The notes beneath the pieces were generated by a model. It was not told where the DNA came from. It saw only the letters and a list, made by a program, of their open reading frames with translations, and did no database searches. From a virus, in the IMG/VR virus record IMGVR_UViG_3300031521_000027, positions 1 to 64,000 of that record: a stretch of 64,000 bases of DNA; one strand, written 5' to 3'. Below, one piece after another: positions 1,126-63,374 of this stretch (positions within the stretch are counted from its first letter, which is position 1; each line of letters opens with the position of its first letter). The position numbers were made by a program, and so were the translations under genes.

Positions 1126-1139
1126 GCGTATCAGTGAGG
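1126..1139 (+). promoter_or_regulatory. Phage middle-promoter motif (GCGTATC AGTGAGG)
   Basis: Copy of the recurring GCGTAYC-A(G/A)T motif, upstream of ATG 1156. Confidence 0.6.
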
Positions 1140-1155
1140 GGAGAGGAGGCCAACC

Positions 1156-1404
1156 ATGGCCGCTATTGAAGATCAGATCCGTGAGGTCCGTGGGGCCATC
1201 GCGCAGGTGCAGAACAAGAAGGCACGCTCCGCCGTCGAGCTGGAGAACGCCAAGTCCCGGCTCGCGGATGCGCGCAAGGTGCTGAAGGACGAGTTCGGCG
1301 TCGAGACCAACGAGGAAGCCAAGTCCAAGCTCACCGAGCTGCGGGCCGAACTGGACTCCGCCGTCGCCGAGATCGAGGCCTCACTGGTAGAGGCCGGGGC
1401 GTGA
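1156..1404 (+). CDS. Small coiled-coil hypothetical protein
   Basis: GGAGG RBS, heptad-rich sequence, typical codon usage. Confidence 0.75.
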   Translation: MAAIEDQIREVRGAIAQVQNKKARSAVELENAKSRLADARKVLKDEFGVETNEEAKSKLTELRAELDSAVAEIEASLVEAGA

Positions 1405-1622
1405 TCACAGCTCTCGTCACCGTCGGTGCTGTCCTGCTGGTGGGAGGGCTGGTGATCTACGCTGCCCTTTCCAACACCGCTCCTGAGCCTTCACCGCTGG
1501 TGATCTGCACGGTGTGCGTCATGGGGTTCTCTGCGTGGGAGAAGGCTGTTGAGCATCTCCAGCTCGCCCACATCTCGAAGGTCCCTGACGATCTCTCTGA
1601 CATCGAGCTTGACTCTAGGTAA
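1401..1622 (+). CDS. Small membrane protein with C2H2-like zinc motif
   Basis: N-terminal hydrophobic helix; CxxC...HxxxxH; GTGA overlap with previous gene. Confidence 0.6.
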   Translation: MITALVTVGAVLLVGGLVIYAALSNTAPEPSPLVICTVCVMGFSAWEKAVEHLQLAHISKVPDDLSDIELDSR

Positions 1623-1637
1623 GGACAGTCTTATACT
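1609..1637 (+). promoter_or_regulatory. Host SigA-type promoter
   Basis: TTGACT-17 bp-TATACT upstream of ORF 1677. Confidence 0.8.
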
Positions 1638-1676
1638 AGAGACGTCAACCCAGATTCACGAAACAAGGCGGTCAGC

Positions 1677-2587: not shown

Positions 2588-2600
2588 AAGGAGGCTCCCG

Positions 2601-4460: not shown

Positions 4461-4488
4461 GCTGCGCGCAGTCGCGTTGCGCCGACAG

Positions 4489-4523
4489 GAAGCCCGGAGG
4501 TGTTAGTGGCCCTCCGGGCTTTC
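4489..4523 (+). terminator. Intrinsic terminator hairpin
   Basis: AAGCCCGGAGG / CCTCCGGGCTT stem downstream of dnaN. Confidence 0.75.
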
Positions 4524-4556
4524 GCTTGCCCACCGGTAGGTTGATTCCAGAAACAG

Positions 4557-4585
4557 TTGACATGCAGAGCCCAAGTGACTATAGT
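4557..4585 (+). promoter_or_regulatory. Host SigA-type promoter
   Basis: TTGACA-17 bp-TATAGT upstream of ORF 4619. Confidence 0.85.
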
Positions 4586-4618: not shown

Positions 4619-5020
4619 ATGGCTGCACTGCCCGACGGTCTCACGCAGGCCGACCTCGACCGCTACGCCCAGCTCGACGCTGGCATCGCCGCGCTCGCCG
4701 AAGAGCACAAGATCCTCAACGCCAAGATCAAGAAGGCTCACCTCGACGCCGGTCTTTCCGGAAAGAAGACGCTGGTCTACCCCAGCGACAAGTACGGCGC
4801 GATCATCGTCAAGCTCAACGAGCAGCGCAGGCTCGACATGGAGGCACTGGCCGAGAAGTACGTCGAGGAGCAGTTCCCGCAGTACTTCATCCACTCCCTC
4901 GACACCAAGGCCATCCCCGCCGATGAGCTGGACGTCTTCCGTACCAAGGTCGTGCAGACCCTGTCCATCGACCGGGAGAACGCCGAGCCCGCCGTCTCGC
5001 CGAAGCGCGTGCAGGTCTGA
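4619..5020 (+). CDS. Hypothetical protein
   Basis: AAGGA RBS, strong codon bias, follows SigA promoter. Confidence 0.75.
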   Translation: MAALPDGLTQADLDRYAQLDAGIAALAEEHKILNAKIKKAHLDAGLSGKKTLVYPSDKYGAIIVKLNEQRRLDMEALAEKYVEEQFPQYFIHSLDTKAIPADELDVFRTKVVQTLSIDRENAEPAVSPKRVQV

Positions 5021-5823: not shown

Positions 5824-5837
5824 GCGTACCAGTAGTT
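5824..5837 (+). promoter_or_regulatory. Phage middle-promoter motif, leaderless
   Basis: GCGTACC AGTAGTT followed directly by GTG 5838. Confidence 0.65.
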
Positions 5838-6794
5838 GTGAAGCTGTTCCCCTACCCCGAGTGTGGCGACTCTTCTGACGTCCTCGGGTGGATGAAGGGC
5901 AACGCCAACCGGTACCTCCACACCTTCCGCCGCACGAGCACTCCGTTCCCGGATGTCGACATGCTCAGCGACTGGGTCTTCACGGTCAGTGTGAAGCTCC
6001 ACCGACCGTTAGGCGCTACCGAACGGTCCTACCTGCTCACAGCGGACATGGCTGTCTCGGCGGCGGAGTACGCGCTGGAGCACTACGACCCCGAGCACGA
6101 GTGCTTCGAGAAGGCCCACCGTGGGGGCTGCCGGTCCAAGCGGGTCTCGCCGCTGTTGGGCATGGTCAAGGATCTGGCCTACATGAGCGCGGCGCAGGTG
6201 GCGGCGAAGCTCGGCATCAGCCGTCAGCACGCGACCCGGTTGCGCAAGCGTGTGGTCGCCGACGCCCCCCAAGACGTTTCCGAAAAAGAGATTGATGCAC
6301 TCATTGGGCACCCCGGTTGGTCTGGCGACGTTCTGAGGCGTACCAGTAGTCATGGACACATTGGATTCGCTGGTCGTCAGGGCCCGCCAGCGCCGTCGGC
6401 AGATCGATGTGGCGCAGGGTGGGGTCCGGGCGGTGCTGTTGCGGGGCAAGGAGCTGACCACCGAGGTGTCAGACCTGTCCGCACTGGTGGAGGAGCTGGA
6501 CCGCGTGACGGTGCTGCTGAACTCGCTGGGGGAGGAGCGGCAGCTTGCCGCCCAGTCCAGCATCGAGGAGCTGGTCACCCGGGGCCTGCGGATGATCTTC
6601 GACGACACCCTGAGCTTCCACATCGTGCAGGCCGTGAAGGGCAAGACCGCAGTGGTCGAGTTCGTGGTCCGCACGACGCTGGGCAACGACGTCATCGAGA
6701 CCCCGGTGATGGACGCCCGGGGCGGTGGCCTTGCCGCCGTGATCGGCTTCCTGCTGCGGTTCGTCGTCATGCTGATGGGTCGCGATCCCCGTGA
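5838..6794 (+). CDS. PriCT-1/HTH protein resembling the C-terminal half of ColE2/pAL5000-type Rep; portion beyond about 6310 doubtful
   Basis: LHRPLGATE...AVSAAEY, RGG.RSKR, and HTH MSAAQVAAKLGISRQHATRLR; 3' part overlaps gene 6352 out of frame. Confidence 0.5.
   Translation: MKLFPYPECGDSSDVLGWMKGNANRYLHTFRRTSTPFPDVDMLSDWVFTVSVKLHRPLGATERSYLLTADMAVSAAEYALEHYDPEHECFEKAHRGGCRSKRVSPLLGMVKDLAYMSAAQVAAKLGISRQHATRLRKRVVADAPQDVSEKEIDALIGHPGWSGDVLRRTSSHGHIGFAGRQGPPAPSADRCGAGWGPGGAVAGQGADHRGVRPVRTGGGAGPRDGAAELAGGGAAACRPVQHRGAGHPGPADDLRRHPELPHRAGREGQDRSGRVRGPHDAGQRRHRDPGDGRPGRWPCRRDRLPAAVRRHADGSRSP
6338..6351 (+). promoter_or_regulatory. Phage middle-promoter motif, leaderless
   Basis: GCGTACC AGTAGTC followed directly by ATG 6352. 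Confidence 0.7.
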
Positions 6795-10418: not shown

Positions 10419-11155
10419 TGACCAAGGCCATCTTCCTCACCGCCTACGACCGGCCCGAGCTGCTGGCCCGGACCATGCGGTCGTGGGAACTCGTCCGGGG
10501 CGTGCTCGGGGTGCCCTTCCTCGTGATGATCGAGCCCGGACCCAAGGCGGAGGAGTGCGCCGCCATCGTCGAGGCCTCCTTCGTGAGGATGGGCCACCTC
10601 GCGTCCCACGTCGAGGTCAACCCCACCCGCTACGGTGTCCTCCACCACCCGTGGGTGGGCTTCGAGAAGATGTTCAAGAACTTCGACTTCGTCATCCGGG
10701 CAGAGGACGACCTGTGCGTCTCCGACGACGTGCTGGAGTACTTCGACTGGGCGGAGGCAGCCTTCAGAGATGATTCTGAGGTGGCCACGGTGCACGCCTA
10801 CACCGACGGTCCCGGATCCGACCCTGAGGTGGTGCAGGTCCTCTCCGAGTTCAACCCGTGGATATGGGGCACGTGGAAGAACGTCTGGCATGACGTCCTC
10901 GGCCCGACGTGGGACCACGACTACTCGACCTTCAACGGCACCCCCGGCAACCAGTCGGGATGGGACTGGAACCTCAACACCCGGATCTTCCCCCAGCTCG
11001 GGCTGTCCGGTGTGTTTCCTGAAATGAGTCGCGTCGACAACATCGGCGTCTACGGCATCCACGGCACCGCTGAGAACTTCCGCACCGCCGAGAGCTTCCG
11101 TCCACTCCATGCGCGTGGGGGGTATCGAATGAAGGGCCGATCTTCAGAGGTGTGA
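10415..11155 (+). CDS. GT-A glycosyltransferase (GT13/GnT-I-like motifs)
   Basis: LTAYDRPELL, EDDLCVSDD, FNPWIWGTW, WDWNL, SRVDNIG..G.HG. Confidence 0.75.
   Translation: MMTKAIFLTAYDRPELLARTMRSWELVRGVLGVPFLVMIEPGPKAEECAAIVEASFVRMGHLASHVEVNPTRYGVLHHPWVGFEKMFKNFDFVIRAEDDLCVSDDVLEYFDWAEAAFRDDSEVATVHAYTDGPGSDPEVVQVLSEFNPWIWGTWKNVWHDVLGPTWDHDYSTFNGTPGNQSGWDWNLNTRIFPQLGLSGVFPEMSRVDNIGVYGIHGTAENFRTAESFRPLHARGGYRMKGRSSEV
11135..11145 (+). promoter_or_regulatory. Phage late-promoter motif GGCCGATCTTC, leaderless
   Basis: Exact motif 6 nt before GTG 11152. Confidence 0.7.
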
Positions 11156-17383: not shown

Positions 17384-17612
17384 GCAGACCATCGCCCACG
17401 AGACCGTCCGGTTCCACTTCGACAGCCTGTTGGGAGCCACCCGGGGACTGATCGCTGTACTGGTTGACGCCGCCACATCTGAGCGTGAGTACCGCTTCAC
17501 CGGGCTCTCCCCGGCGTCCATTCTGAGGTCCGGATTGGTGCTCGAAGGGGACGTGGCCGATCTTCTACAGAGCATCGAAAGCATCAAGGGCTGTACCCGA
17601 AGCGACGGGTGA
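17376..17612 (+). CDS. Hypothetical protein
   Basis: AGGAG RBS, overlapping start. Confidence 0.45.
   Translation: MTEQTIAHETVRFHFDSLLGATRGLIAVLVDAATSEREYRFTGLSPASILRSGLVLEGDVADLLQSIESIKGCTRSDG
17555..17565 (+). promoter_or_regulatory. Phage late-promoter motif GGCCGATCTTC
   Basis: Exact motif 75 nt upstream of giant ORF 17641. Confidence 0.6.
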
Positions 17613-17640: not shown

Positions 17641-20600
17641 GTGCTCCTCCAGCTCAGCAACATCAGTGATCCCGAGGTAGTCGAGCTGGCCAACAACCTG
17701 CTCCTCCTCAGCAAGGGAGACAGGCACGTCCGGACCCCCGAGGGTTCCCGCAAGTACGGCCTGCCCATTGGTGCACTGATCACGCTCGACGCCATCGCTC
17801 GCGCGGACAAGCGCTTCCCCAACACCCCCGTCCCCGAGGATCGCGCGGCAGCAGCGGGCGGCTCCGGTGGTGGAGACGGTCCCAAGGGCCCCAAGGGTCC
17901 GAAGGGTCCCAAGACCCCGGACAAGCCTGAGCCGCCCAAGACCCCCCGGGCGAAGAAGACCGCTGAAGAGATCAAGCAGGTCATCGCCGACTCCCCCGAC
18001 CTCGACGTCAAGACCGCCCAGTTCACGAAGCTGGAAGGCGACCACACCGTCATGGTGGGGGAACACCCGCACCGGCTGCCTGCCGGGTCCAAGGTGTTCC
18101 GGCTCAACGGCGACAAGTCCGTGGCCATCGCGCGCACCCCCGACCACAACCTCTACCTGCTCACCCCCAAGGGCCGCGCGCTGGACCTGCGGGACCGCAA
18201 CACCGAGAACCAGCTCAACGAGCGTCTCGACAACATGCAGGCCAACGACCCCGACTTCACCATGGAGACCCTCGGCGTCGACCCGACTGACCCCACCGCC
18301 AACAGTGCGGACGTCAACGTTCCTGCCGGTGCCCCGGGCCCGGACGGCACCCCCGCGCCGGACGTCAATCTGGAGGAGATGGCCTCCCGCCTCGACAAGA
18401 TGTCGGCGGAGTCCACCGACCCGGAGCAGGCCAAGCAGTACAAGGAGCTGGCCACCCAGATGCGCGCCGGGAACGGCCCGCAGCGGCTCGCCCTGCCCGA
18501 CAAGAACTCCAAGGACAAGACCAAGACTTCCCCCGATGGCACGCCGGACGCAGCCCCAGACCCCGGCCCCCGGCGTGCCATCCCCCCGAAGCCGGTACCC
18601 ACCCGGAAGCGCCGGGAGGTCGCCCCGAAGGATGCTCCGCCGCAGGACCCGGCCACGATGGACGACAACCACCTGAAGGCCGTCCACGAGGACCTCAGCG
18701 CGGCCAAGGACATCCACCCGACCAACAAGGAGCTGGCCGACCGGCACGCCGCAATCACCGCTGAGAAGGACAAGCGCGCGACAGCCAAGGAGCTGGACAA
18801 GGCCAAGTCGAAGCTCAACGGCGCGGAGGCAGCTTCCCCGGCTTCCGAACCGAAGGGTCGCTCCGACGGCAAGATCGGGCACAACGCCGTTCCGGACGCC
18901 AACCGGGACAAGGCGATCACTGCCGACGTCGCAGCCAACGGCATCGACGGAGAGAAGAAGAGCCCGAAGCAGGACAAGCTCCCTCTCAAGCCGGACGCTC
19001 CCGCCGAGCCCCAGCCAGCCCCCACGATGTCGACCGAGGCCTTCGGCGACCGCAGGCTCAGCGCCGCCGACATGCGCGCGCAGGGCATCACTGCCGGGGA
19101 GGGCAAGTTCTCCACCCCGGTCACCAACCGCAAGGACGTCCTGAACGCCCGGGTGGGCGACAAGTTCCTCACCAAGAACCGGTACAGCGGTGGCCTGTGG
19201 GGCATGGAGGCCGACGGCCAGATCCACCTGCTCTCCGACGACGGTGACCACACCGAGATCTCCATGTCCCCCACGGAGTTCGCCGACCTGATGGAGCCGC
19301 ACCCGCTGTACGGGACCACGGACTTCTACGCTTTTTCTGGAAACAGGAACAACCAGAACGCACACCCGACGTCCAAGCCCGGCGACAAGGTCAACGCCCC
19401 GTGGGTCGAGCAGGCTGCGGTCGGCTCCGTCGCACAGGACGGCACCGGGATCGTCGGCAAGAAGAACGCCGATGGCACCTACGACACCCCCATCGGCAAG
19501 GTCACGCAGGACTTCTACCTGCCCAGCGACGTCGCCGGGGATGACTCGGTCGTCGTCCGCAACGGCCCGGACCCGGATCAGAAGCCCGTCGGAGCCACCG
19601 TCCAGCTGGCCACCACCAACGACCTCGCGGACGTCCCGCAGGGTGACGCCATCGTGCTCGGTGATGGGGAAGTCTCCATCGAGCGCAGGTCCGACGGCAC
19701 CTACGAGGCCGACCTCAACGGCCTGCGGATCCCGATGTCGGAAGACAACGTCGGGCACTACATCGAGAACGGTGACCAGCCCGCGTGGCACGTCCCCAAT
19801 CAGGACATCTCGGGCACCCCCTCGAAGGACAGCTGGAACGAGGGCGACCGGCTCGCGCGCATCGACGATGTGAACGCACAGGAGCCCGGCACCGAGATCC
19901 ACCTCGCTGGGGATGACGGCACCGACCACACCTACACGGTCATGCCTGACGAGCAGGTCATGAACAACGACGATCACACGGTCGTCCCCAACAGCGTCCT
20001 GAAGCCTGCCCTCGTCAACGGGAAGGTGACCGTCGGCAAGCAGCACGTCGAAGGCGACCCCGTACCGACGGTGCCCGAGCGCCACATCGAGAACGTCAGC
20101 GACTACGTCCCCGGCGACAAGATTCAGGAGTACGCCCACCTCCGGGAGATGCGCCCCGGCCAGCAGGTCACCATCTACGTGAAGTCGTCCAAGAACGGTG
20201 GCCGGTCCCTGCCGGTCGTCCTGACCCGCACTGACGACACGCAGGACAACTCCGGCTTCATGTTCCTCGTGGGACGCCGTGGCGCGGGCTACAACTCCTT
20301 CGGCGAGAACAACGCCGCCATCTTCTCAGCCATCAACGACGGTCGTCTGCACTTCGGGGACATCACCAACCTGCCCGGCTCCCGCCCGCACGACATGATC
20401 GACACCAACTGGGACACTACCCCCAACATCGATCTGTACGAGGGCGGCCCCAAGGTCTCCCAGAAGGACCTGTGGGACTTCATCAACGCGCAGGTCTACT
20501 CCCGCTCGATGCAGTCCTCGTACTACAACGTCGACCTGCTGCCCCCGGGCTCGATCTTCCGTTCGCAGGAGGTACGCAACCACCTCTCCGAGCTGGCGAT

Positions 20601-24337: not shown

Positions 24338-24348
24338 GGCCGATCTTC
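24338..24348 (+). promoter_or_regulatory. Phage late-promoter motif GGCCGATCTTC, leaderless
   Basis: Exact motif 6 nt before ATG 24355. Confidence 0.75.
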
Positions 24349-24354: not shown

Positions 24355-25446
24355 ATGGATGAGTTCGTAGTCGTACCCGGCCCGCGAGGCTCTCGCTTCG
24401 TCGAGCTGGCGCGGTCCAGCTCCGGGCGTGTTTTCCGAAAGCAGATCCTCCACTACGGCGAGCTGAAGTACCCGGGCGTCAAGGGTGGCTCCGTCAAGGT
24501 CGACGAGAAGTTCGCTGACGTCCTCATCGCCAACTTCGCCGCAGGCGTGGCCGACATCGTTCAGGTCCCCAAGGTGGGGGACAACAACGAGCACACCGAG
24601 GATCCCGACCGCAACATCGGCGAGGTCATCAAGGTCCTGAAGCAGGCCGACGGGGTCTACGTCGACATCGACGTCCGCACCGACGACGCCGACAAGATGG
24701 GCAAGACCCTCCTCGGGGCCTCCGCCATGCTCCACCTCGACTACATGGACACCACCAGCGGTTCTCGCGTGGGTCCGACCCTCCTGCACACAGCCATCAC
24801 CAACCGTCCCTACGTGACCAACCTCCACGGTTTCGAGGAAGTGATCGCGGCCTCACGTGGTGGGGCCGATCTTGATAGGCAGGTGCTGGTCCTTACTCCG
24901 GCAGACAACGAGGAGAACTTCATGACTCTGGAAGAGACGCTCGCCGCTCTCAAGGCTGACCACGGCATCGACGTGACCGCCCTTCAGGCGCTGGCAGCGA
25001 CGGCGGAAGCGTCTGTCGCCCTGAGCAACAAGATTCAGGAGGAGCTGGTTGGTACCGGCCTCCTGACCCTGAGCAACACCGACGAGACGGTCTCTGCTGA
25101 GGTCCTCATCGGCGCTGTCGCCGAAGCGGGCAACAAGATCGTCGCCCTGACCGCCAAGGTCGACACCCTGATCGAGAGCGGTGCAAAGGCCGCTGCCGAG
25201 GCAGAGGTCGAGAAGCTGGTCCTCTCCGGCCACATCCTCCCGAAGAACAAGGAGGCCATGGTCGAGCTGAAGCTCTCCAACGCCGAGCTGTTCGACAAGA
25301 TCGTCCCCGAGAACCCCATCGTCAAGCTCTCCGCAGAGGGTGGCGCAGAGGTCATCGACGACGCACACGACAAGACGGTGGAGGACGAGATCGCTCGCCT
25401 CAGCGCCGTTGCCGACAGCCAGACCGCCGCGTACGTGCGCTCGTAG
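24355..25446 (+). CDS. Prohead protease-scaffold (Mu gpI-like)
   Basis: GPTLLHTAITNRPYV motif; coiled-coil C-terminal half; position before decoration and capsid genes. Confidence 0.8.
   Translation: MDEFVVVPGPRGSRFVELARSSSGRVFRKQILHYGELKYPGVKGGSVKVDEKFADVLIANFAAGVADIVQVPKVGDNNEHTEDPDRNIGEVIKVLKQADGVYVDIDVRTDDADKMGKTLLGASAMLHLDYMDTTSGSRVGPTLLHTAITNRPYVTNLHGFEEVIAASRGGADLDRQVLVLTPADNEENFMTLEETLAALKADHGIDVTALQALAATAEASVALSNKIQEELVGTGLLTLSNTDETVSAEVLIGAVAEAGNKIVALTAKVDTLIESGAKAAAEAEVEKLVLSGHILPKNKEAMVELKLSNAELFDKIVPENPIVKLSAEGGAEVIDDAHDKTVEDEIARLSAVADSQTAAYVRS
24864..24874 (+). promoter_or_regulatory. Internal late-promoter motif variant GGCCGATCTTG
   Basis: One mismatch to the motif, upstream of internal RBS and ATG 24922. 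Confidence 0.55.
24922..25446 (+). CDS. Nested in-frame scaffolding protein (Mu gpZ-like)
   Basis: GAGGAG RBS then in-frame ATG (MTLEETLAALK). Confidence 0.6.
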   Translation: MTLEETLAALKADHGIDVTALQALAATAEASVALSNKIQEELVGTGLLTLSNTDETVSAEVLIGAVAEAGNKIVALTAKVDTLIESGAKAAAEAEVEKLVLSGHILPKNKEAMVELKLSNAELFDKIVPENPIVKLSAEGGAEVIDDAHDKTVEDEIARLSAVADSQTAAYVRS

Positions 25447-27186: not shown

Positions 27187-27197
27187 GGCCGATCTTC
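27187..27197 (+). promoter_or_regulatory. Phage late-promoter motif GGCCGATCTTC
   Basis: Exact motif just after the terminator and before the RBS of 27220. Confidence 0.75.
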
Positions 27198-30533: not shown

Positions 30534-30544
30534 GGCCGATCTTC
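30534..30544 (+). promoter_or_regulatory. Phage late-promoter motif GGCCGATCTTC
   Basis: Exact intergenic motif before ATG 30572. Confidence 0.75.
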
Positions 30545-34966: not shown

Positions 34967-34977
34967 GGCCGATCTTC
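34967..34977 (+). promoter_or_regulatory. Phage late-promoter motif GGCCGATCTTC
   Basis: Exact intergenic motif before the tail tube gene. Confidence 0.75.
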
Positions 34978-50587: not shown

Positions 50588-50746
50588 GTGCCAGAGTCCT
50601 TGCTCGAACGCCTCCGCCCCATGTGGGCTGCTGCTGTATCGGCTTTTCTCTCTGACCCGTCGTATGCCATTGAGATGGCCACCGTCGGGAGCCAGCAGGC
50701 AGTAGTTGTCGCCCGTTCTGAGGACATGGAGTTCAGCGGCGTATAA
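50588..50746 (+). CDS. Small 52-aa hypothetical protein (not in ORF track)
   Basis: GTG...TAA open frame filling the gap: MPESLLERLRPMWAAAVSAFLSDPSYAIEMATVGSQQAVVVARSEDMEFSGV. Confidence 0.45.
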   Translation: MPESLLERLRPMWAAAVSAFLSDPSYAIEMATVGSQQAVVVARSEDMEFSGV

Positions 50747-50752
50747 GTGGTC
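50739..50752 (+). promoter_or_regulatory. Phage middle-promoter motif variant (GCGTATA AGTGGTC)
   Basis: Precedes GGAGG RBS and TTG 50768 of the SNF2-sigma pair. Confidence 0.55.
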
Positions 50753-50767: not shown

Positions 50768-52498
50768 TTGCCACTCAACTTTGACGTCCGGAACTTCACC
50801 GAAGCTCGCCGTGAGCAGCTCGCGTGGAGGATCCACCAGTCCGTGAACTGGAAGCTCCCGCCCCTGAAGGTGTGGAACTACGACCTGTGCCGCATCCATG
50901 CGCGCGGGTGGGTCGAGGAGATCCGTGACACCGACGGTGAGGTCAAGACCCACACCGTCTACGACCGGCCCAAGCCCGGCTGCCGGGACTGTGGGATCCA
51001 CTTCCGCAGGCACCAGCACATCGGGGTGGCGTGGCTCTATTTCAAGAAACACGCCCTGCTGGCTGACACCATGGGATCGGGCAAGACCACCGAGGCTGGC
51101 GGGCTGATCGCCATGCTGATCGAGACCGGGGAGCTGTCCCTCTTCCGTGACAGATCCAGCGCCCACGGTGGCAAGGGTCGAGTCATCATCGTGCCCCGGT
51201 CCCCCGCCCTCCACCAGTGGCGCACCGAGCTTCTCCGGATGATGCCCAGCCTGAACATCCTCGTCTCCGAAGGCACCCGCAAGCAGCGCACCCAGTTCTA
51301 CCTCCAGCCGTGGCAGGTCCTCCTGATCGGGCCTGAGATGCTGCGCAACGACTACCAGCTGCTGGAGAACTTCGACCTCTCCCTCTTCCTCACCGACGAC
51401 ATCGACGCCCTCCGCAACCCCACCACCGAGACCTCCTACGTGCTGGACCGGATGGGTGCCCGGGGGGTCGAGGGCCTGCGTCCCGGCACCGACCGCTACG
51501 TCATCATGACCGGCACCCCCCTCCAGAAGCGCCTGCCCGAGCTGCACGCGGTGCTGGACGGCATCGGGGGCACCCTCGCGCTGGGCAGCATGGACTCCTT
51601 CGTCCACCGCCACGTCCGCAAGGCCACCATCACCGAGTACGACCGGAAGTCAGGCAAGGACATCCGCAAGGAGGTCGTGGTCGGCTACCGGGACCTCGGT
51701 ACGGTCAAGGCCCGGATCGCCCCGCTCGTGCTCCGCCGCACCGCCGCCGACCTCGACGACGTCGACCTGCCCACGATCATCCCCAACGACGTCATGCTCG
51801 ACCTCTACCCCGTGCAGCGGGCCAAGTACACCGAGCTGCGCAAGGGCGTGCTGAAGATCATCCGCGAGGAGGGCACGCAGGTGAAGCGCCCCAACGCGCT
51901 GGCCAAGATCCACTACGGTGCGGCCATCTGTGCAGGGCTCGCCGCGCTTGGGGAAGAGGACGGCCCCGGGACCAGCGTCAAGCTCGACTGGGTGGTCAAC
52001 CAGCTCACCGAGGGTGGGCTCAGCGAGCGCGGCGAGAAGGTGGTCGTGTTCGCCAACCTGAAGAACACCGTCAGGGCCCTCCAGATCCGGCTCAAGGAGG
52101 AGGGTGTGGGCTTCGTCACGGTGTGGGGGCAGGAGAACGACAAGGTCAAGCGCGCAGCCTCACAGGAGCGGTTCTGGACCGACCCGAAGTGCAAGGTGCT
52201 GATCGGCACCAAGGCCATCGAGCAGTCCCTGAACCTTCAGGTCTCCCGGCACCTCGTCAACATTGACATGATCTTGAACCCAGCGAGAATGGAGCAGTTG
52301 GCCGGACGTATTCGCCGCGACGGCTCGGCCTTCCAGCACGTCTACGTGCACAACCTCCTGACCATCAATACGCAGGAGGAGAAGTACCTCCCCCTGCTGG
52401 AGCGTGAAGCAGCGCTGGCCGCGCACATCTGGGACGAGGATTCCCAGCTGTTCACTGCCCTCTCACCCTTGGCCCTTCTACAGCTCATTTCCGGATGA
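50768..52498 (+). CDS. SNF2/SWI2-family helicase-like ATPase
   Basis: LLADTMGSGKT, P...LHQW..EL, MTGTPLQ, KVVVF, LNLQ, NPARMEQLAGRIRR.G; Walker B reads DDID. Confidence 0.85.
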   Translation: MPLNFDVRNFTEARREQLAWRIHQSVNWKLPPLKVWNYDLCRIHARGWVEEIRDTDGEVKTHTVYDRPKPGCRDCGIHFRRHQHIGVAWLYFKKHALLADTMGSGKTTEAGGLIAMLIETGELSLFRDRSSAHGGKGRVIIVPRSPALHQWRTELLRMMPSLNILVSEGTRKQRTQFYLQPWQVLLIGPEMLRNDYQLLENFDLSLFLTDDIDALRNPTTETSYVLDRMGARGVEGLRPGTDRYVIMTGTPLQKRLPELHAVLDGIGGTLALGSMDSFVHRHVRKATITEYDRKSGKDIRKEVVVGYRDLGTVKARIAPLVLRRTAADLDDVDLPTIIPNDVMLDLYPVQRAKYTELRKGVLKIIREEGTQVKRPNALAKIHYGAAICAGLAALGEEDGPGTSVKLDWVVNQLTEGGLSERGEKVVVFANLKNTVRALQIRLKEEGVGFVTVWGQENDKVKRAASQERFWTDPKCKVLIGTKAIEQSLNLQVSRHLVNIDMILNPARMEQLAGRIRRDGSAFQHVYVHNLLTINTQEEKYLPLLEREAALAAHIWDEDSQLFTALSPLALLQLISG

Positions 52499-53241
52499 AA
52501 GCAGTGACAATGACCGCCGCCACCCCCGTCCCCCTCTCCGACTACCAGAGCGAGTTGGTCAGGACCCACGTGGGCCTTGCCCAGAGCATTGCAATGTCTT
52601 TCTGGAAACGAGCCGCATCGGAAGTGGACCGCGACGAGATCGTGGCCATCGCCTATCAGGGGCTGATCACCGCCGCCCAGAGGTACGAACCCAACATCGT
52701 CCCGGAGAACGACCCGGACGTGGCGCTGCCCCCTGTTGCACTGACGTTCGGCCAGTACGCCAAGCGCCGCATCGGGGGAGCCATTCAGGACTGGATGCGC
52801 CAGCTGGACCACGTCCCCCGCAGGCAGCGCACCATCTACAAGGACATGCAGGAGCTGGCCCCCGGCAGGAGCCCTGAGGAGACCGCAGAGATCCTCGGGA
52901 TCGACGTCAACCGGGTCCGTGCGATCACCCACGCAGTCGAGTGCCCCCCGGTCTCACTGGACGACATGGCAGGCGACAGCGACCGGGGCAACATGGCTCC
53001 CCCAGCTGAGGGAGGCACCGAGGGATCAGTCGCAGCCCACATGCTTCAGGAGGCCATGGTCGAGGTCATGGAGGGGATGCCGTCGTTCGAGAAGTCGGTC
53101 ATCGTCCTGCGGTACTACATGGGCATGAGCTTCCCCCAGATCGCCGCCGAGCTGGGCTCCAGCGTGTCCACCGTCAAGGTCACCCACCAGCAGCAGATCC
53201 TGCTGATCCACGCCGCCATGGTCCAGACTGCGCGCTCCTGA
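52495..53241 (+). CDS. RNA polymerase sigma factor, FliA/WhiG (sigma-28) type
   Basis: GLITAAQRYEP, F..YA..RI.GAI.D..RQLDHVPR, VSLD, region 4 LRYY.GMSF.QIA..LG. Confidence 0.88.
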   Translation: MKAVTMTAATPVPLSDYQSELVRTHVGLAQSIAMSFWKRAASEVDRDEIVAIAYQGLITAAQRYEPNIVPENDPDVALPPVALTFGQYAKRRIGGAIQDWMRQLDHVPRRQRTIYKDMQELAPGRSPEETAEILGIDVNRVRAITHAVECPPVSLDDMAGDSDRGNMAPPAEGGTEGSVAAHMLQEAMVEVMEGMPSFEKSVIVLRYYMGMSFPQIAAELGSSVSTVKVTHQQQILLIHAAMVQTARS

Positions 53242-53266: not shown

Positions 53267-53280
53267 GCGTACCAGTAAGT
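53267..53280 (+). promoter_or_regulatory. Phage middle-promoter motif (GCGTACC AGTAAGT)
   Basis: Intergenic, upstream of 53299 and the dnaB operon. Confidence 0.75.
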
Positions 53281-53298: not shown

Positions 53299-53493
53299 AT
53301 GACCGATCCGCAGTACGACCTGTCCCCCGACGATGCCGTCATCCAGATGCACGCCAACCTGACGGCCATGAAGGCGGACCCGAACCGGAAGCAGCTGACC
53401 GGCATGACTCCCGACGACGCCTTCGACCTCGGGTACGGCGCGTGCCTGCTCGACTACTCCGCCCTCACCGGGCCCAAGCCTGAAGAGAACTGA
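53299..53493 (+). CDS. Small hypothetical protein
   Basis: AAGGAG RBS. Confidence 0.6.
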   Translation: MTDPQYDLSPDDAVIQMHANLTAMKADPNRKQLTGMTPDDAFDLGYGACLLDYSALTGPKPEEN

Positions 53494-53494
53494 C

Positions 53495-53746
53495 ATGGCT
53501 CACATCCCCAAGCCCTTCTCCCGTCCCAGCATCAGCCTCAACACCTCGGGCAGGCGCTGGGTCCAGACCCGCGCGTGGGACCTCGACACAGGGGACATCG
53601 TGCAGGACATGGGCATGGTCAAGGAGATCGAGAAGCACGTGACCACGACCAAGATCTCCTTCGCCTCCGGGCTGTCGTTCGTTTTCACAAACGACACCGT
53701 CATGCGCGCCTTCACGCTTGGAGAGTCCGTTGGCATCAGCCTCTGA
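53495..53746 (+). CDS. Small hypothetical protein
   Basis: Typical codon use; A.DL..GDIV beta-barrel-like motif. Confidence 0.6.
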   Translation: MAHIPKPFSRPSISLNTSGRRWVQTRAWDLDTGDIVQDMGMVKEIEKHVTTTKISFASGLSFVFTNDTVMRAFTLGESVGISL

Positions 53747-55205: not shown

Positions 55206-55219
55206 GCGTATCAATAGGT
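55206..55219 (+). promoter_or_regulatory. Phage middle-promoter motif, leaderless
   Basis: GCGTATC AATAGGT followed directly by ATG 55220. Confidence 0.7.
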
Positions 55220-55781: not shown

Positions 55782-56331
55782 GCTGCTCCGGATCGCCAAC
55801 GAGAGAGTCTCGATCACCAAGGCCTGCAACATGATCGGGATGAACGTCAGCGACTACGCCGCCGCGTCGATGAAGGTCTACTGCCCCTTCGGCGAGATCT
55901 TCCATCAGGACGGTGGAATGTCGAAATCCATGCGGATCTACGCCGAGTCCAACAGCGCCTTCTGCTTCGCTGGGTGCGGCTACTACGACCCGGTCAAGCT
56001 CATCTCCACCAGTAGGGACATCTCCGAGGAAGATGCAGCGGAGGCCCTGCTGGAGGAGACTGGGTACGTAGCACCCAACTATCAGGATCAGTGGGACGCG
56101 CTGATGTCCGAGAAGCCAGTGGTCGACACGGCAGACTTGGCCGAAGCCCTCAAGGTTGCGTGCGCCAGAATGGTCCCGAACTGGGAGGAACGCCAGTTCG
56201 ATGAAGCGGTCTCGCACAAGCTCACCCAATGCCTCGCTCTCCTCCGCAAGGTCCACACCGATGATGACGCCACGAACTGGCTGAGCATCACCAAGAAGGT
56301 CATGAAGGCAACGATGGAGGCACGGGCATGA
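55768..56331 (+). CDS. DnaG-type CHC2 zinc-finger protein (no TOPRIM domain)
   Basis: CPF...H.D...SMRIY....AFCFAGC...D. Confidence 0.75.
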   Translation: MERAELLRIANERVSITKACNMIGMNVSDYAAASMKVYCPFGEIFHQDGGMSKSMRIYAESNSAFCFAGCGYYDPVKLISTSRDISEEDAAEALLEETGYVAPNYQDQWDALMSEKPVVDTADLAEALKVACARMVPNWEERQFDEAVSHKLTQCLALLRKVHTDDDATNWLSITKKVMKATMEARA

Positions 56332-56570
56332 GCACGGACGAGAAGCTGGGGAACCTCCCCCAGCTGGAGGGCTGGGTCAACCTCACCGAGGCCGCAGAGA
56401 TCTTGGGCATCTCCCGACAGCACGCGTACCGACGTGCACGTTTGGCCAATGAGGGCAAAATGGGTGGCTGGAAGACGGTGTGTCGCATTGGCACCAAACC
56501 GAGTTATGTGGTAGCTCTTTCCGAGCTTCAGGAGGAGCTGCTTGTGACACGCCCGGATCGCAGACGTTAG
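56328..56570 (+). CDS. Small HTH DNA-binding protein
   Basis: LTEAAEILGISRQHAYR. Confidence 0.75.
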   Translation: MSTDEKLGNLPQLEGWVNLTEAAEILGISRQHAYRRARLANEGKMGGWKTVCRIGTKPSYVVALSELQEELLVTRPDRRR

Positions 56571-56649
56571 TTGCATATGTCACCCCTCAGGGCTATGGTC
56601 AGACACAGCTTCACTCCCGTTGCCACTACGCCTCATGGTCGGATATACT
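56571..56649 (+). promoter_or_regulatory. Tandem host SigA-type promoters
   Basis: TTGCAT-17-TATGGT (56571-56599) and TTGCCA-18-TATACT (56620-56649) upstream of sigma gene 56740. Confidence 0.7.
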
Positions 56650-56739
56650 TCGTCTTGCAGCTGGAGGGTTCACGCCCTTCACCTCCTGCCTAAGTTGACC
56701 GCTTAGCGAGTGACGGGCTCCCATTAAGGAGTCCGTCAC

Positions 56740-57465
56740 TTGGCGTTTTACGAGAAACAAGCGGTCAACTTATCGGTCACCCCATGGAGGATTTCTGTGC
56801 CCAGTCTTACCGTTTCCCCCCGCACCATCACGCAGGCCGGAAGGCCCTCATCGTCGAGGTATCCGGACTTCGTCCCAGCCAACTACACCGAGCTGTTCGA
56901 CCACTACTACCCTTACGTCCGGGGCATCGTCTTCAAGTCCGGCATCGACTCCCAGAGCTGTGCGGACGTGACCATGTCCATCCTTGAGAAGTTCTTCGCC
57001 CACGACGTGCTGGCCGACTTCAACCCCGAGTTCACCTCCACCCATGGTGGGGTCACCCGCAAGGCCATGTTCCGGACCTTCCTGTCCGGCTTCGTCAAGA
57101 TCTACGTCCGGCACCACCGGGACCGCCAGATCATCACCAAGGCTCGCGAGGCCATCTCGCTCGACGCACCAGCCGGTGACGACAACACGTGGATGGACTA
57201 CTACGGGGAGACCCACGTCGACACCTACGATCAGCTGATGATCGAGGATGCCGTCCTCACCGTGCAGGACCACCTTGCCACCCTCTCCGACCCCCGGGGC
57301 CGCTGCGAGATGCTGGACCTGTTCAACATGACCTTGGAGCACTCGGTCACCTACGGCAGCCCCAACGTTGAAATCCTGTCCCAGTACTTCGAGGTCTCCG
57401 AGACCACGATCCGGAACCGGCTGAAGGCCCTGCGCGCCGAGATCCATGAGGTCTTCGAGTCATGA
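56740..57465 (+). CDS. RNA polymerase sigma factor, ECF-like (alternative start GTG 56797)
   Basis: Region 2-like YTELFDHYYPYV...ADV...FRTFL...VRHHR; region 4 HTH LSQYFEVSETTIRNRL. Confidence 0.7.
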   Translation: MAFYEKQAVNLSVTPWRISVPSLTVSPRTITQAGRPSSSRYPDFVPANYTELFDHYYPYVRGIVFKSGIDSQSCADVTMSILEKFFAHDVLADFNPEFTSTHGGVTRKAMFRTFLSGFVKIYVRHHRDRQIITKAREAISLDAPAGDDNTWMDYYGETHVDTYDQLMIEDAVLTVQDHLATLSDPRGRCEMLDLFNMTLEHSVTYGSPNVEILSQYFEVSETTIRNRLKALRAEIHEVFES

Positions 57466-59987: not shown

Positions 59988-60001
59988 GCGTACCAGTAAG
60001 T
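59988..60001 (+). promoter_or_regulatory. Phage middle-promoter motif (GCGTACC AGTAAGT)
   Basis: Intergenic, upstream of the polymerase operon; identical to the 53267 copy. Confidence 0.75.
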
Positions 60002-60031
60002 GGAGCACCCCGCAGATCAAGGAGAACTGAC

Positions 60032-60223
60032 ATGGACTGGGCAACGTACTGGATCCTGCTGGCGCAGGCAGGCATCGCTCTCGTAGCGCTGGCCGTGCCG
60101 CTGTCGTTCGCCATCGCGGTGGCAGGAGCAGGTGTCAAGGCAGCCATGAAGAGTGCGGGCTCAGCTGAGGTCCCGCAGGCTCCCCTGACCCAGAACACCT
60201 ACACCTTCCCGCCGACCAAGTGA
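60032..60223 (+). CDS. Small membrane protein
   Basis: AAGGAG RBS, hydrophobic helix. Confidence 0.6.
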   Translation: MDWATYWILLAQAGIALVALAVPLSFAIAVAGAGVKAAMKSAGSAEVPQAPLTQNTYTFPPTK

Positions 60224-62829
60224 CCACTCGCAACTACGGAGCCCTCCGGGAGGCCTACGGGTCCAAGGGTGCGGTCTCCTTCATCGACCGGATCACAGCC
60301 AGCGGTAAGCCCTTCGACTTCGACATCGAGGCGGGCTACACCGGGGACGACAAGAAGGGTGTCTCCCTCCAGCAGTACCACCCCGACTACCTCGTGGTCG
60401 GCATCTCCTTCACGGTCTCCACCGAGTGGGCCCGCTACATCCCCTTCGCCCACGACAGCGGCGGCAACATCGACGACATCGTCCCGGTGGCCCGCGCCTT
60501 GTGGCGGCTGCTCAGCTCCGGGCAGGGGATCGCCCACAACGCAGCCTACGAACTCAAGGGCATGTCCCGGTGGTTTCGTGAAACGTTGTGGAACGACGAC
60601 GAGCTGGGCGAAGAGATCCGACGCACCAAGGGCATGTTCCCGATCCTCGCTGACACGATGCTGCTGGTCTGGCTCGCCGCCTGCTACGACCCGCTCCGCG
60701 TCGGCAAGGACCTGAAGTCGGTGGCCAAGGCCGCGTTCGGCATGGAGATGACCCACTTCGACGACCTCTTCCCCACCACTGACACCGACCTCGGCCCGGC
60801 CATGAAGCGGGGTGGCAAGCCGTACATCCGGTTCAACACCCGCAACTCCTACAGCCCCGTGATCGTGGGCTACGCCTGTGAGGACTCCGTCGCCTCCTTC
60901 ATGGTCTGGGAGAAGCACTACGAGGCCCTCAAGGACACGTTCATCTTCAAGACCGAGATGGCCCTGCTCCCGGGACTGGTGGAGATGGAGGCCGGGGTCA
61001 TCGATCCGGAGACCGGGGTCGCCTCCGGCAACATGTTCTTCCACTGGCCCAACGTCCGCAAGAAGTCCGAGGAGGCCCTGCGCTTCGCCACCCTCATGGG
61101 TGAGGAGATTCAGGACCAGCTGGGCAAGCGGCTGAACAAGACCATCAACATCAACCTGAACTCGGTCCCGCAGCTGGCCAAGGTCCTGTTCGACGAGAAG
61201 CCCGACGGCCTCGGCCTGCCAGTGAAGGTGCGCTCGGAGAAGACCGGGGCACCCAGCACCAGCGACGACGCCCTGAAGGTGATTGCCAAGTCCGACCCGA
61301 TCATCAAGATGATCCTTGAGTACCGGCAGGTGGTGAAGCTCAACGGGTCCTACCTGACCAAGTTCATCAACGAGCTGGGCTACTCCGGCACCGGCTACGT
61401 CTTCCCCAACCACAACCAGTTCGGTGCCCTCACCGGGCGGCTCTCGGTGGATCAGGTCAGCTACCAGCAGTGGCCCAAGCCGTACCACTTCCAGCTGCTG
61501 TCCGGGCTCACCTTCGACCTCAACTTCCGGGACCTGTTCATCTCCCCGGACCACTTCCGGATCGTCGGCTTCGACTACGCCAACGTGGAGATGCGGATCG
61601 CCGGGGCCCTGTCCGGTGAGCGCAAGATCATCGACGCCTTCAACAACGGGCTCGACCTCCACAAGTCCACCGCCTCGGCCACCTTCAAGGTCAGCCTCGA
61701 AGATGTCACCAAGAAGCAGCGGCAGTCGGCCAAGACCCTGAACTTCGCCACCCTCTTCGGGTCCGGTGCAGGGAACATCGCCGAGATGCTGACCAGCCCC
61801 TCCGACCCGGTGACCAAGGAGGACGCCGAGCAGATGCTGGAGGACTACTTCGCTGGGTACCCAGCGCTGGCCGATTGGATCGCCAGCCAGAAGGCGCACG
61901 GTCGTGAGTCCAAGGAGGTCCGCACCCACTTCGGTCGGCTCTACACCATCTGGGAGCACTACCAGCCCAAGGAGTGGATCAAGGCCAAGGGTGACCGGAT
62001 GTCGGTCAACGCACCGATTCAGGGCACCGCCGCCGACATCCTCAAGATCGCCATGGTCCGTGCCAAGAAGGCCATCAAGGAGGCCGGGCTGGAGGACCTC
62101 GTCCGGATGACCCTGACCGTCCACGACGCGCTGGAGTTCCTCGTCCACGAGTCCGTCTCCACCCAGCAGGTCATCGACCTGATCGAGCCCTGCGTCAACT
62201 TCCCGGTGCCCGGCTTCCCGCTGGAGATCCGGGCGGACTGGCACGAGGGCTACCAGTGGGGTGCCCAGACCGAGGTCCGGCTCGACGAGAACAAGCAGAT
62301 CAAGAGCTTCGACATCGAGGTGGAGCTGCCGTGGCTGAAGGAGTCCCACTACTGGGAGGGCTCCACGCTGCACGAGGTGCTGGACCAGTACTACGCGTGG
62401 GAGGCAGGCTTCTTCGGCTTCTCCGCCCCGTACTACGCCACCCGCAACCCAGACTTCTCCCTGCCCGAACCCGCAGATGCCTCCCAGCAGCCCGACGTTG
62501 CCGCTGTGGAGCCTGAGGAGGAGGACCCGGGGTGGTTCCACAGCGCGGAGCACAACGCCGCACTGCTGCCCCCCAAGACCGCCACGGTGACCATCTCCGA
62601 GATGCCCGACGAGGAGCAGTGGCTGAAGTTCACCACCTACCTCGACTTCCGGCAGGGTGTGGACACGGTCAAGGTCGAGACCCCGGAGGGTGTCGTCACG
62701 CTCGACGGCACGTTCCGGATCTCCCCGGACGATCAGCCAGCCATCAGCCTCATCCTCGGAGGGGCCGGTCTGGTGATCGCTGACGACGTGGCCGACGCCG
62801 ACGACGTGATGGCAGGGATGCTGGTATGA
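60220..62829 (+). CDS. polA: Family A DNA polymerase with 3'-5' exonuclease and extra C-terminal domain
   Basis: Exo FDIE, HNAAYE, YACED; TGRLS; motif A DYANVEMR; motif B RQSAKTLNFATLFG; NAPIQGTAAD; motif C VHDAL. Confidence 0.92.
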   Translation: MTTRNYGALREAYGSKGAVSFIDRITASGKPFDFDIEAGYTGDDKKGVSLQQYHPDYLVVGISFTVSTEWARYIPFAHDSGGNIDDIVPVARALWRLLSSGQGIAHNAAYELKGMSRWFRETLWNDDELGEEIRRTKGMFPILADTMLLVWLAACYDPLRVGKDLKSVAKAAFGMEMTHFDDLFPTTDTDLGPAMKRGGKPYIRFNTRNSYSPVIVGYACEDSVASFMVWEKHYEALKDTFIFKTEMALLPGLVEMEAGVIDPETGVASGNMFFHWPNVRKKSEEALRFATLMGEEIQDQLGKRLNKTININLNSVPQLAKVLFDEKPDGLGLPVKVRSEKTGAPSTSDDALKVIAKSDPIIKMILEYRQVVKLNGSYLTKFINELGYSGTGYVFPNHNQFGALTGRLSVDQVSYQQWPKPYHFQLLSGLTFDLNFRDLFISPDHFRIVGFDYANVEMRIAGALSGERKIIDAFNNGLDLHKSTASATFKVSLEDVTKKQRQSAKTLNFATLFGSGAGNIAEMLTSPSDPVTKEDAEQMLEDYFAGYPALADWIASQKAHGRESKEVRTHFGRLYTIWEHYQPKEWIKAKGDRMSVNAPIQGTAADILKIAMVRAKKAIKEAGLEDLVRMTLTVHDALEFLVHESVSTQQVIDLIEPCVNFPVPGFPLEIRADWHEGYQWGAQTEVRLDENKQIKSFDIEVELPWLKESHYWEGSTLHEVLDQYYAWEAGFFGFSAPYYATRNPDFSLPEPADASQQPDVAAVEPEEEDPGWFHSAEHNAALLPPKTATVTISEMPDEEQWLKFTTYLDFRQGVDTVKVETPEGVVTLDGTFRISPDDQPAISLILGGAGLVIADDVADADDVMAGMLV

Positions 62830-63332
62830 GCAACGAGTCCGACTTCGAGGCCCAGATCATGGCGTGGGTCACTGAGACGCTGGAGCTTCGCCACGGTGAG
62901 GCAGGGGACCCCAAGGGCAGGCTGCGCGGTGCTGAGCAGGAGAGCATCGCGGAGATGACCGACCTGCTGCTGCGGGTCAGGGCACGCGCCGACCGGGTCG
63001 ACGAGCTGCTGAGCAAGGTCACCCTCGCTCGGGGCCGGGCACGTAGGGCCAAGGAGGAGGCAGCCTTCACCGCTGACCGAGCCCTGATGCAGGCCACCCA
63101 GATCCGGGGGGCGAAGAGGACCGAGTTCTCCTCCGCCGCCGAGCGGGCAGCCGACGCCAAGCTGGATTCGTTTGAGGAAAGAAGGGTGGCTTATCTTAGG
63201 GACAGATTGGTATCGGTTACCAATGATGCCCACGAAGTGATTTCACAGGTTCACTGGCAGCTGGACGCCATCCGCAAGGACCTGCGCGCCTCGCTCCACG
63301 CCCTCCAGTTCGAGTCCTCGCTGGAACGGTGA
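62826..63332 (+). CDS. Coiled-coil hypothetical protein (possibly a UvsY-like mediator)
   Basis: All-helical 168 aa between pol and SSB; function inferred from context only. Confidence 0.5.
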   Translation: MSNESDFEAQIMAWVTETLELRHGEAGDPKGRLRGAEQESIAEMTDLLLRVRARADRVDELLSKVTLARGRARRAKEEAAFTADRALMQATQIRGAKRTEFSSAAERAADAKLDSFEERRVAYLRDRLVSVTNDAHEVISQVHWQLDAIRKDLRASLHALQFESSLER

Positions 63333-63360
63333 CGTCATTCTGCGGATTGTCAGTGCTGAT

Positions 63361-63374
63361 CCGTACCATTAGTT
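63361..63374 (+). promoter_or_regulatory. Phage middle-promoter motif variant (CCGTACC ATTAGTT)
   Basis: Intergenic, upstream of the SSB-like gene. Confidence 0.55.

Follow-up and report, generated by a model that had tools for sequence, protein, structure and literature searches.

Two sigma-like genes and three promoter classes point to a probable sigma replacement cascade in a lytic actinophage related to Magritte

In phage SPO1, gene expression follows a cascade in which the host sigmaA is succeeded by gp28 and then by gp33/gp34 (PMC13401047). A single phage sigma factor with an extracytoplasmic function (ECF)-like fold is known from phiEco32 (PMC12276001). Here, we describe two sigma-like genes and three classes of promoters in a 64,000-nt stretch of viral DNA, hereafter the window, from the IMG/VR record IMGVR_UViG_3300031521_000027. 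The gene at 52495 encodes a FliA/WhiG-like group-3 sigma factor, and the gene at 56740 encodes a protein that resembles an ECF sigma factor in its predicted fold. We consider it likely that this phage times its genes by sigma replacement, in the order host SigA, ECF-like sigma, FliA-like sigma. We regard the existence of the three promoter classes as much more certain than this full model, and the assignment of the middle class to the ECF-like protein as less certain.

The window was taken from the minus strand of a viral contig of 81,941 bp (bases 17942-81941), whose completeness is rated at 66%. This contig represents some two thirds of the genome (roughly 115-135 kb) of a lytic actinophage related to Magritte. 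The GC content of the window is 64%, and its credible genes are all on the + strand. A megablast search with 8 kb against a phage collection found no DNA-level relative. Protein searches gave one named phage with both regulators, Microbacterium phage Magritte (133 kb), where the two homologues, gp47 for the FliA-like and gp60 for the ECF-like protein, are annotated only as "DNA binding protein"; nearly all other homologues of both sigma-like proteins are from metagenomes. The comparison set consisted of Magritte and five IMG/VR relatives, namely the close relative G001 (60 kb) and the complete or near-complete genomes G002, G003, G004, and G005 (124-137 kb), which makes seven genomes with the contig under study. 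Exactly two sigma-like open reading frames (ORFs) are present in each genome compared.

All three promoter classes lie on the coding strand only, and all recur at orthologous genes in Magritte and in G001 to G005. The middle class has the consensus (T/C)TG-N18-GCGTAYCAGT, in which the (T/C)TG located 18 nt upstream of GCGTA is weak according to position-wise information content. Seven copies of the motif GCGTAYMADT were found in the window, exclusively on the + strand, against 0.16 expected. The whole contig holds nine forward copies (two beyond the window) and no reverse copy. The motifs precede the exonuclease and ATPase block, the operon of the SNF2-family helicase and the FliA-like sigma, the DnaB block, the primase block, the PolA, SSB, RecA block, and a gene for a MazG-like pyrophosphohydrolase. 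The copies in the window are as follows:

1126-1135, + strand: middle motif GCGTATCAGT, before ORF 1156
5824-5833, + strand: middle motif, leaderless GTG 5838 (+14), an ORF with high third-position GC (GC3) and a C-terminal helix-turn-helix (HTH)
6338-6347, + strand: middle motif, leaderless ATG 6352 (+14), the start of the exonuclease gene
50739-50748, + strand: middle motif variant GCGTATAAGT, before the SNF2 and FliA-like sigma operon
53267-53276, + strand: middle motif, before small ORFs and a DnaB-like helicase gene
55206-55215, + strand: middle motif, before ORF 55251 and a primase homologue
59988-59997, + strand: middle motif, before ORF 60032 and the DNA polymerase I gene

The site orthologous to 59988 is present in Magritte, G001, G002, and G004. 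Before the SNF2 and sigma operon, the relatives keep an A-variant, GCGTAYAA, with T or C at position 6. Across the genomes, the core GCGTAY is invariant, and the flanking bases have drifted:

Contig under study: middle motif GCGTAYCAGT
G002 and G003: middle motif GCGTATCAC
Magritte: middle motif GCGTAYCAC
G004: middle motif GCGTAYAA
G005: middle motif GCGTATAC

The late motif, GGCCGATCTTC, occurs in six exact copies in the window, on the + strand only, and in seven exact forward copies and no reverse copy in the whole contig. Allowing one mismatch raises the count to 10 (2.0 expected), a number that none of 100 shuffles reached. All six exact copies in the window are upstream of packaging, head, or tail genes as judged by homology to Magritte. 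The genes concerned are a block of gp9-like, terminase, and portal genes, the gene for a 2096-aa protein, the scaffold gene, the post-capsid genes, a gp23-like gene, and the major tail gene. The seventh copy, beyond the window, is located before a 46-aa ORF and an endolysin-like gene and is assigned to lysis.

11135-11145, + strand: late motif, leaderless GTG 11152 (+17 from the motif start), with terminase and portal genes downstream
17555-17565, + strand: late motif, before the 2096-aa ORF of the virion block
24338-24348, + strand: late motif, leaderless ATG 24355 (+17 from the motif start), the start of the scaffolding gene
24864-24874, + strand: late-type motif with one mismatch, inside the scaffolding gene and followed by an in-frame GTG at 24883
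27187-27197, + strand: late motif, after the terminator-like hairpin of the capsid gene and before ORF 27220
30534-30544, + strand: late motif, before ORF 30572 (homologue of Magritte gp23)
34967-34977, + strand: late motif, before the major tail protein gene at 35037

Here, too, the core (CGAT) is invariant across the genomes, and the bases around it have drifted:

Contig under study and G001: late motif gGCCGATCTTC
G002: late motif GAGGCCGATATCACATAG
Magritte: late motif gG(C/T)CGATATCCCTGA
G004: late motif tG(C/T)CGAT(A/G)GTAG
G003: late motif GGTCGATAGT
G005: late motif nGCGATAGTA

Position-wise information content of the late class revealed nothing upstream of about -18 in five genomes, i.e., no -35 element. 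Other candidates for late elements were rejected. The 8-mer CGATCTT[CG] is unspecific (15 forward and 20 reverse matches), and specificity needs the longer element. The match TGCCGATCTTC at 54520, inside the DnaB gene, was not taken as a promoter, being kept in G001 only within a conserved coding stretch and having no start nearby. The G004 repeat GAAGAATTT has many copies in coding sequence; the real G004 motif is CGAT(A/G)GTAG.

The early class was found by a scan for SigA-type promoters and is uniform, with the sequence TTGACA-N17/18-TA(A/T)(G/A)(A/C)T. The contig has nine forward sites and no reverse site; three are in the window (1609, 4557, and 56620), and six are beyond it, at 75.3-81.0 kb in window-oriented coordinates. 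These promoters precede small ORFs of no known function and the ECF-like gene. Two of the window copies are given here and the third with the ECF-like gene below:

1609-1637, + strand: early promoter TTGACT-N17-TATACT, upstream of ORF 1677-2312
4557-4585, + strand: early promoter TTGACA-N17-TATAGT, upstream of ORF 4619-5020

An earlier note on this DNA had placed the GCGTAY motif before replication and recombination genes and before the SNF2/FliA-like sigma pair, which the counts given above bear out. It had also restricted the late motif to packaging and structural genes. This is correct for all six window copies and fails at the lysis genes beyond the window. The view that the whole circuit can be read from the window was overstated, as most early promoters lie outside it.

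The distances between motifs and genes fit with promoters. As a background, a gene start follows within 70 nt at only 8% of + strand positions. A gene start lies within about 76 nt of eight of the nine middle sites (nine of nine if ORF 5838 is counted) and of all seven exact late sites. At sites with a Shine-Dalgarno sequence, the distance from motif to start varies between 20 and 76 nt. At sites that have none, the start codon is fixed at +13 to +15 from the G of GCGTA: at +14 in the contig under study (5838, 6352, 69680, and 72893), at +13 in Magritte, G002, and G003, at +14 in G004, and at +15 in G005. Likewise, the start codon at late sites of this kind is at +14 from the C of CGAT here (11152, 24355, and 71134) and at +13 or +14 elsewhere. 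In Magritte, ten independently annotated starts are exactly +13 from the middle motif (gp46, 68, 77, 119, 130, 155, 168, 222, 228, and 233), and the annotated starts of gp19 (scaffold) and gp98 are exactly +13 from the late motif. In the early class, the arrangement is likewise leaderless, with TAAGAT, six bases, and ATG. Because leaderless mRNAs are frequent in Actinobacteria (PMC4633059), the most economical interpretation is that transcription at these sites begins with the start codon itself. Leaderless transcripts thus appear to be numerous in the middle and late classes and to occur in the early one as well. Starts placed in this way put the late motif at -15 to -8 in Magritte and G003 and at -16 to -9 elsewhere, and the GTA of the middle motif at about -12 to -10 in the phage under study.

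The gene for the FliA-like sigma overlaps the gene upstream of it:

50768-52498, + strand: SNF2-family helicase gene
52495-53241, + strand: FliA/WhiG-like group-3 sigma gene, whose start overlaps the SNF2 stop codon (ATGA)

ORF 52495 encodes a clear sigma-70-family protein that is nearest to FliA/WhiG. It matches Pfam Sigma70_r2 and r4 (Sigma70_r4_2 with an E-value of 6.5e-14), and positions 1-221 of the 224 in the FliA_WhiG model align to its residues 21-240. Sigma regions 2, 3, and 4 are present in one polypeptide of about 240 aa. A profile of the phage sigma family aligns end-to-end with FliA and matches FliA/WhiG structures with E-values of 2e-24 to 6e-18, and SigA with 1e-12 or worse.

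In the fliC promoter of P. aeruginosa, the -10 element is (-15)GCCGATAA(-8) (PMC12784957). R97 (R91 in E. coli FliA) reads the GC extension, R80 and D87 (R74 and D81) read C-13 and G-12, and Y76 (Y70) stacks on the flipped A-11 (PMC12784957). The roles of the -10-reading residues, with D81, R84, and R74 for CG, were taken from this paper, including Koo et al. (2009) as cited there. In our alignment, Y88, R92, D99, R102, R109, and R112 of the window sigma correspond to Y70, R74, D81, R84, R91, and R98 of E. coli FliA; hence, all six sigma-28 residues that contact the -10 element are kept. The late motif matches the sigma-28 -10 element in sequence and, with the starts placed as above, also in register: it reads GCCGATCT in the contig under study and GCCGATAT in Magritte and G002. 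In G005, the position of R91 is occupied by Ser, and the late motif has lost the GC extension, which is one data point of co-variation. The FliA-like sigma would thus work like sigma-28 at the -10 element, and we infer that it reads the late motif.

The FliA-like sigma gene itself is located behind the middle motif at 50739, which is conserved in the relatives. No conserved host-type promoter was found upstream of it. The sole host-like match, TTGACA-N16-GAGAAT at 52263 within the SNF2 gene, was rejected as a promoter of the sigma gene, its hexamers not being kept in G001, G002, and Magritte.

The ECF-like gene, in turn, is preceded by two host-type promoters and a structured leader:

56571-56599, + strand: promoter P1, TTGCAT-N17-TATGGT, before the ECF-like gene (in G001, TTGCAT-N17-TAGGGT)
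56620-56649, + strand: promoter P2, TTGCCA-N18-TATACT, before the ECF-like gene (in G001, TTGCGA-N18-TACACT)
56650-56796, + strand: structured leader of the ECF-like gene, from the comparison of six genomes
56740-57465, + strand: ECF-like (sigma2-sigma4) gene, from predicted fold and weak profile matches

Both promoters are kept in G001, the closest relative, despite changes in the spacers. A SigA-type -10 element, either extended (TGn-TAnnnT) or with a -35, is present at the same place in G002, G003, G004, and Magritte. All six genomes whose leader was compared have their own SigA-type promoter before the gene. Upstream of the ECF-like gene there is neither a middle nor a late motif, only SigA-type promoters, so the gene is not autoregulated.

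The comparison suggests GTG 56797 as the real start of the ECF-like gene. In the leader, CUCCU, GTTGACC, a hairpin followed by a T-rich run, and GGTCAAC occur in this order, and the architecture is conserved in the six genomes. The CUCCU is invariant and can pair with the Shine-Dalgarno sequence, and 12 of the 25 predicted pairs of the hairpin have compensatory changes. The leader could provide translational or attenuation control of the first tier.

The assignment of the 56740 protein as a sigma factor depends on a predicted structure and weak profile matches. An AlphaFold (AF2) model was built from ten homologues, with a mean predicted local distance difference test (pLDDT) score of 70 and both domains well above this value. 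The model has two domains joined by a disordered linker, sigma2 followed by sigma4, with no region 3. The top 50 Foldseek matches are all sigma factors, with ECF sigmas first. The N-terminal domain (residues 40-138) matches region 2 of sigmaE on the -10 strand with Z 8.4 and a root-mean-square deviation (rmsd) of 3.1 Å over 83 of 91 residues, and region 2 of SigW, SigC, SigK, and CnrH with Z 7.4-7.6. The C-terminal domain (residues 160-241) matches region 4 of sigma-28 and SigL with Z 7.5-7.9 and an rmsd of 2.2-2.6 Å. Among the structures matched are a sigmaE region 2 engineered to bind GTAAAA and 9m7y chain F, from a gp79-dependent RNA polymerase (RNAP) promoter open complex, which we take to be the sigma of phage phiEco32. 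At the sequence level, TIGR02937 aligns over the full length, with an E-value of 0.005 for the ECF-like protein and 2.8e-6 for its G002 homologue. A profile search of the family against the PDB gave RpoE region 2 with an E-value of 0.056. Among the ten relatives, Pfam r4_2 was matched in three (at 0.002 or worse) and r2 in one. A PHROGs search with the ECF-like protein gave no match. No anti-sigma gene was found beside the ECF-like gene, the downstream gene encoding a clamp-loader-like ATPase; a distant anti-sigma gene was not searched for.

Based on these results, the following order of events is proposed. In a first step, host RNAP with SigA would read TTGACA-N17/18-TAnnnT and switch on small early genes, and the two tandem promoters with the long structured leader would drive the ECF-like sigma gene. 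In a second step, the ECF-like sigma would direct the host core enzyme to (T/C)TG-N18-GCGTAYCA, leading to expression of replication, recombination, and nucleotide-metabolism genes and of the SNF2/FliA-like sigma operon. In a third step, the FliA-like sigma would read gGCCGAT(C/A)T, a composite extended -10 of the sigma-28 type with no -35, and the packaging, head, tail, and lysis genes would be expressed.

For the three-tier cascade claimed in the earlier note, every testable prediction at the sequence level held, and the wiring is of the SPO1 type: the first sigma gene is behind host-type promoters and the second behind a promoter of the class proposed for the first sigma. We infer the pairing of sigmas with motifs, above all the link of the first sigma to the middle class, and the temporal order. 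The tandem SigA-type promoters proposed for the ECF-like gene were found again as P1 and P2, and the likeness of the late motif to GCCGAT-like -10 elements of sigma-28 was confirmed. Both genes had been named as sigma genes; this is clear for the FliA/WhiG-like 52495, whereas the ECF label of 56740 stands for a predicted fold with no family-level match.

Several results weigh against the cascade. With 77.4 bits, the FliA-like sigma stays below the FliA/WhiG cut-off of 189.6 bits (TIGR02479) and by NCBIfam rules ranks as a divergent relative, not as a family member. The sigma-28 -35 element TAAA is missing from the late promoters of five genomes, and these promoters may need a co-factor. None of the curated sequence cut-offs is reached by the ECF-like protein: a Pfam search gave no significant sigma domain, just an HTH match, and TIGR02937 gives 16.5 bits (22.9 for the G002 homologue) against a cut-off of 42.9. 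When the ECF-like family was compared with the FliA-like family in hhalign, only the C-terminal HTH aligned, with a probability of 5%. Z values of about 8 are within the range where helical folds match by arrangement alone. Finally, the -35 of the middle class resembles the TTG of SigA promoters instead of the AAC usual for ECF sigmas, and several GCGTATAAC sites of G005 have a perfect TTGACA at SigA spacing; the host sigma could read some of these.

Host SigA might act on the middle class, given its TTG -35 at SigA-like spacing and the TTGACA-N14-GCGTATAAC hybrids in G005. Only the late tier would then depend on a phage sigma, SigA (alone or remodelled) would read the middle motif, and the 56740 protein, with its HTH match in hhalign and Pfam, would be an HTH factor or an appropriator. 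We regard this as unlikely. Taken as a -10 hexamer, TAYCAN would lack the near-invariant final T, and it is 4-5 nt from the leaderless start, whereas the SigA promoters of the same genomes have TAnnnT followed by 6 nt. The order of the domains in the model, the sigma factors at the top of the fold matches, and the full-length alignment with TIGR02937 also argue against a mere HTH factor. A CGTA-containing -10 is of the type used by ECF sigmas such as SigW. By fit and elimination, the ECF-like protein is the best candidate reader of the middle motif; this is the weakest link of the cascade.

The pairing might also be reversed, with the FliA-like sigma on the middle class and the ECF-like sigma on the late class, or one sigma might serve both CG(T/A)(A/T) elements with different partners. 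Both motifs are in the same register (C at -13 ± 1) and differ mainly at -11 and -10, a class with no -35 could suit a minimal sigma, and TTG-type -35 elements characterise group 1-3 sigmas more than ECF sigmas. We nevertheless consider this distinctly improbable given the GCCGAT in sigma-28 register and the six contact residues of the FliA-like sigma. The FliA-like gene is behind a middle motif and the ECF-like gene behind host-type promoters, and with a swapped pairing, the virion genes would be switched on ahead of the replication genes, and the middle class would have no initiator. That the motifs are not promoters at all but RNA-level signals (processing sites or elements associated with translation starts) or regulator sites is hardly credible, for although they are very near start codons and some are inside the last part of the gene upstream, their spacing from the start is fixed only where a Shine-Dalgarno sequence is missing, the late core equals the sigma-28 -10 element in sequence and register, the middle class has a spaced upstream TTG, and exactly two extra sigma-like proteins stand against exactly two non-host motifs.

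One extension of the proposed cascade, in two parts, is speculative, and we give it little weight. Because the late promoters have no -35 yet the FliA-like sigma keeps a full region 4, a partner other than DNA may hold this region, such as a phage clamp or clamp loader. Late transcription would then be coupled to replication as in T4. In the second part, the conserved leader of the first sigma gene, through its anti-Shine-Dalgarno stretch and terminator-like hairpin, might serve as an RNA timer for the start of the cascade.

Further observations concern candidate regulators. Two small conserved ORFs (64 and 83 aa) at 53299-53746 follow directly after the FliA-like sigma gene, behind a middle motif; their Magritte homologues are gp48 and gp50, and they are candidates for an anti-sigma factor or a co-activator of late transcription. 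At 56328-56570, just upstream of the promoters of the ECF-like gene, an 80-aa HTH_17/Xis-like protein is encoded, another candidate regulator. The early promoter at 4557 has a TTCCAGAAA half-palindrome on its 5' side and GGTCAAC on its 3' side. The palindrome TTTCnnGAAA abuts early promoters on the 5' side at 4540-4556 of the window and, beyond it, at 75890-75906, 77462-77478, 80028-80042, and 80992-81006 (window-oriented). GGTCAAC is found near the start site after several early promoters, and the same box occurs after early promoters of G002 and G004. These boxes are a candidate operator for a regulator of early genes.

A late-type motif is present about 526 nt inside the scaffolding gene in the contig under study, Magritte, G002, G004, and G005 (24864-24885 in the window, 18889-18907 in Magritte, and 56785-56803, reversed, in G002). 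In three genomes, an in-frame start codon is located 16 nt past the C of CGAT, which suggests a nested scaffold protein, shortened at the N-terminus, from an internal and nearly leaderless transcript. The TTGACA-N14-GCGTATAAC hybrids of G005 are at 260, 14864, 121519, 133672, and 134953, and they might be used by host and phage sigma alike.

Gene order is shared with Magritte. In the virion part, the terminase, portal, scaffold, capsid, tail, tape measure, and minor tail genes are collinear, followed by those for the SNF2 helicase, the sigma, DnaB, the primase, the second regulator, the clamp-loader ATPases, and PolA. The high-GC3 ORF from GTG 5838, with its C-terminal HTH, has no stop before the exonuclease gene (6352) and continues in another frame up to 6794; an indel in the assembly or an atypical gene end may account for this. 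In Magritte, the counterpart of the region 5838-6794 is where the record has its arbitrary ends. In Magritte (OR553905, 133168-133228 and 1-291), a middle motif with a leaderless ATG at 133181 is found close to the right end (48 nt). Gene 1, annotated from base 1, probably starts at 133181 and crosses the record ends. The annotated starts of Magritte gp9, gp125, gp189, and gp245 also differ from the leaderless starts predicted from the motifs.

The cascade, if correct, gives a wiring diagram for a family of actinophages (115-135 kb) that is so far represented by a single isolate, Magritte, and by metagenome contigs. The analysis yields consensus sequences for all three promoter classes, with their predicted start sites, and corrected start codons for many genes. 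It also presents a natural extended -10 of the sigma-28 type that apparently works with no -35 and on leaderless mRNAs. Gene expression systems for Actinobacteria would benefit from orthogonal pairs of actinophage sigma factors and promoters.

Compared with SPO1, the logic is the same in that the host sigma serves the early genes, an early product is the middle sigma, a middle product is the late sigma, and each class has its own consensus. The differences are in the host (Firmicutes for SPO1, Actinobacteria here) and in the proteins, as SPO1 uses gp28 and the two-subunit gp33/gp34, whereas an ECF-like two-domain protein and a FliA-like group-3 sigma are predicted here. In addition, the late promoters of the present phage have no -35 and many transcripts are probably leaderless, and its cascade is predicted from sequence.

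Sigma-28 proteins (FliA/WhiG), which read TAAA-N15-GCCGATAA, resemble the FliA-like sigma in that the late GCCGAT(C/A)T is at -15/-16 to -8/-9, the six residues are kept, and the best PDB and NCBIfam matches of ORF 52495 are FliA and WhiG. In contrast to them, the TAAA -35 is missing here, the score is under the family cut-offs, and no FlgM or RsiG partner was identified. The FliA-like sigma is also phage-borne and would control virion and lysis genes instead of flagella or sporulation. ECF sigmas such as B. subtilis SigW share the predicted sigma2-sigma4 architecture, and the middle -10 that the ECF-like protein would read contains CGTA, but here the family cut-offs are failed, the -35 is TTG-like and not AAC, and there is neither an adjacent anti-sigma gene nor a cognate promoter before the gene itself. 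The late system of T4 (gp55, gp33, and the gp45 clamp) likewise uses a single extended -10-like element with no -35, and the phage under study encodes its own clamp-loader-like proteins; unlike in T4, its late sigma retains a full region 4. A full-text search of the literature found no description of a two-sigma cascade in actinophages. Sigma replacement itself is classical.

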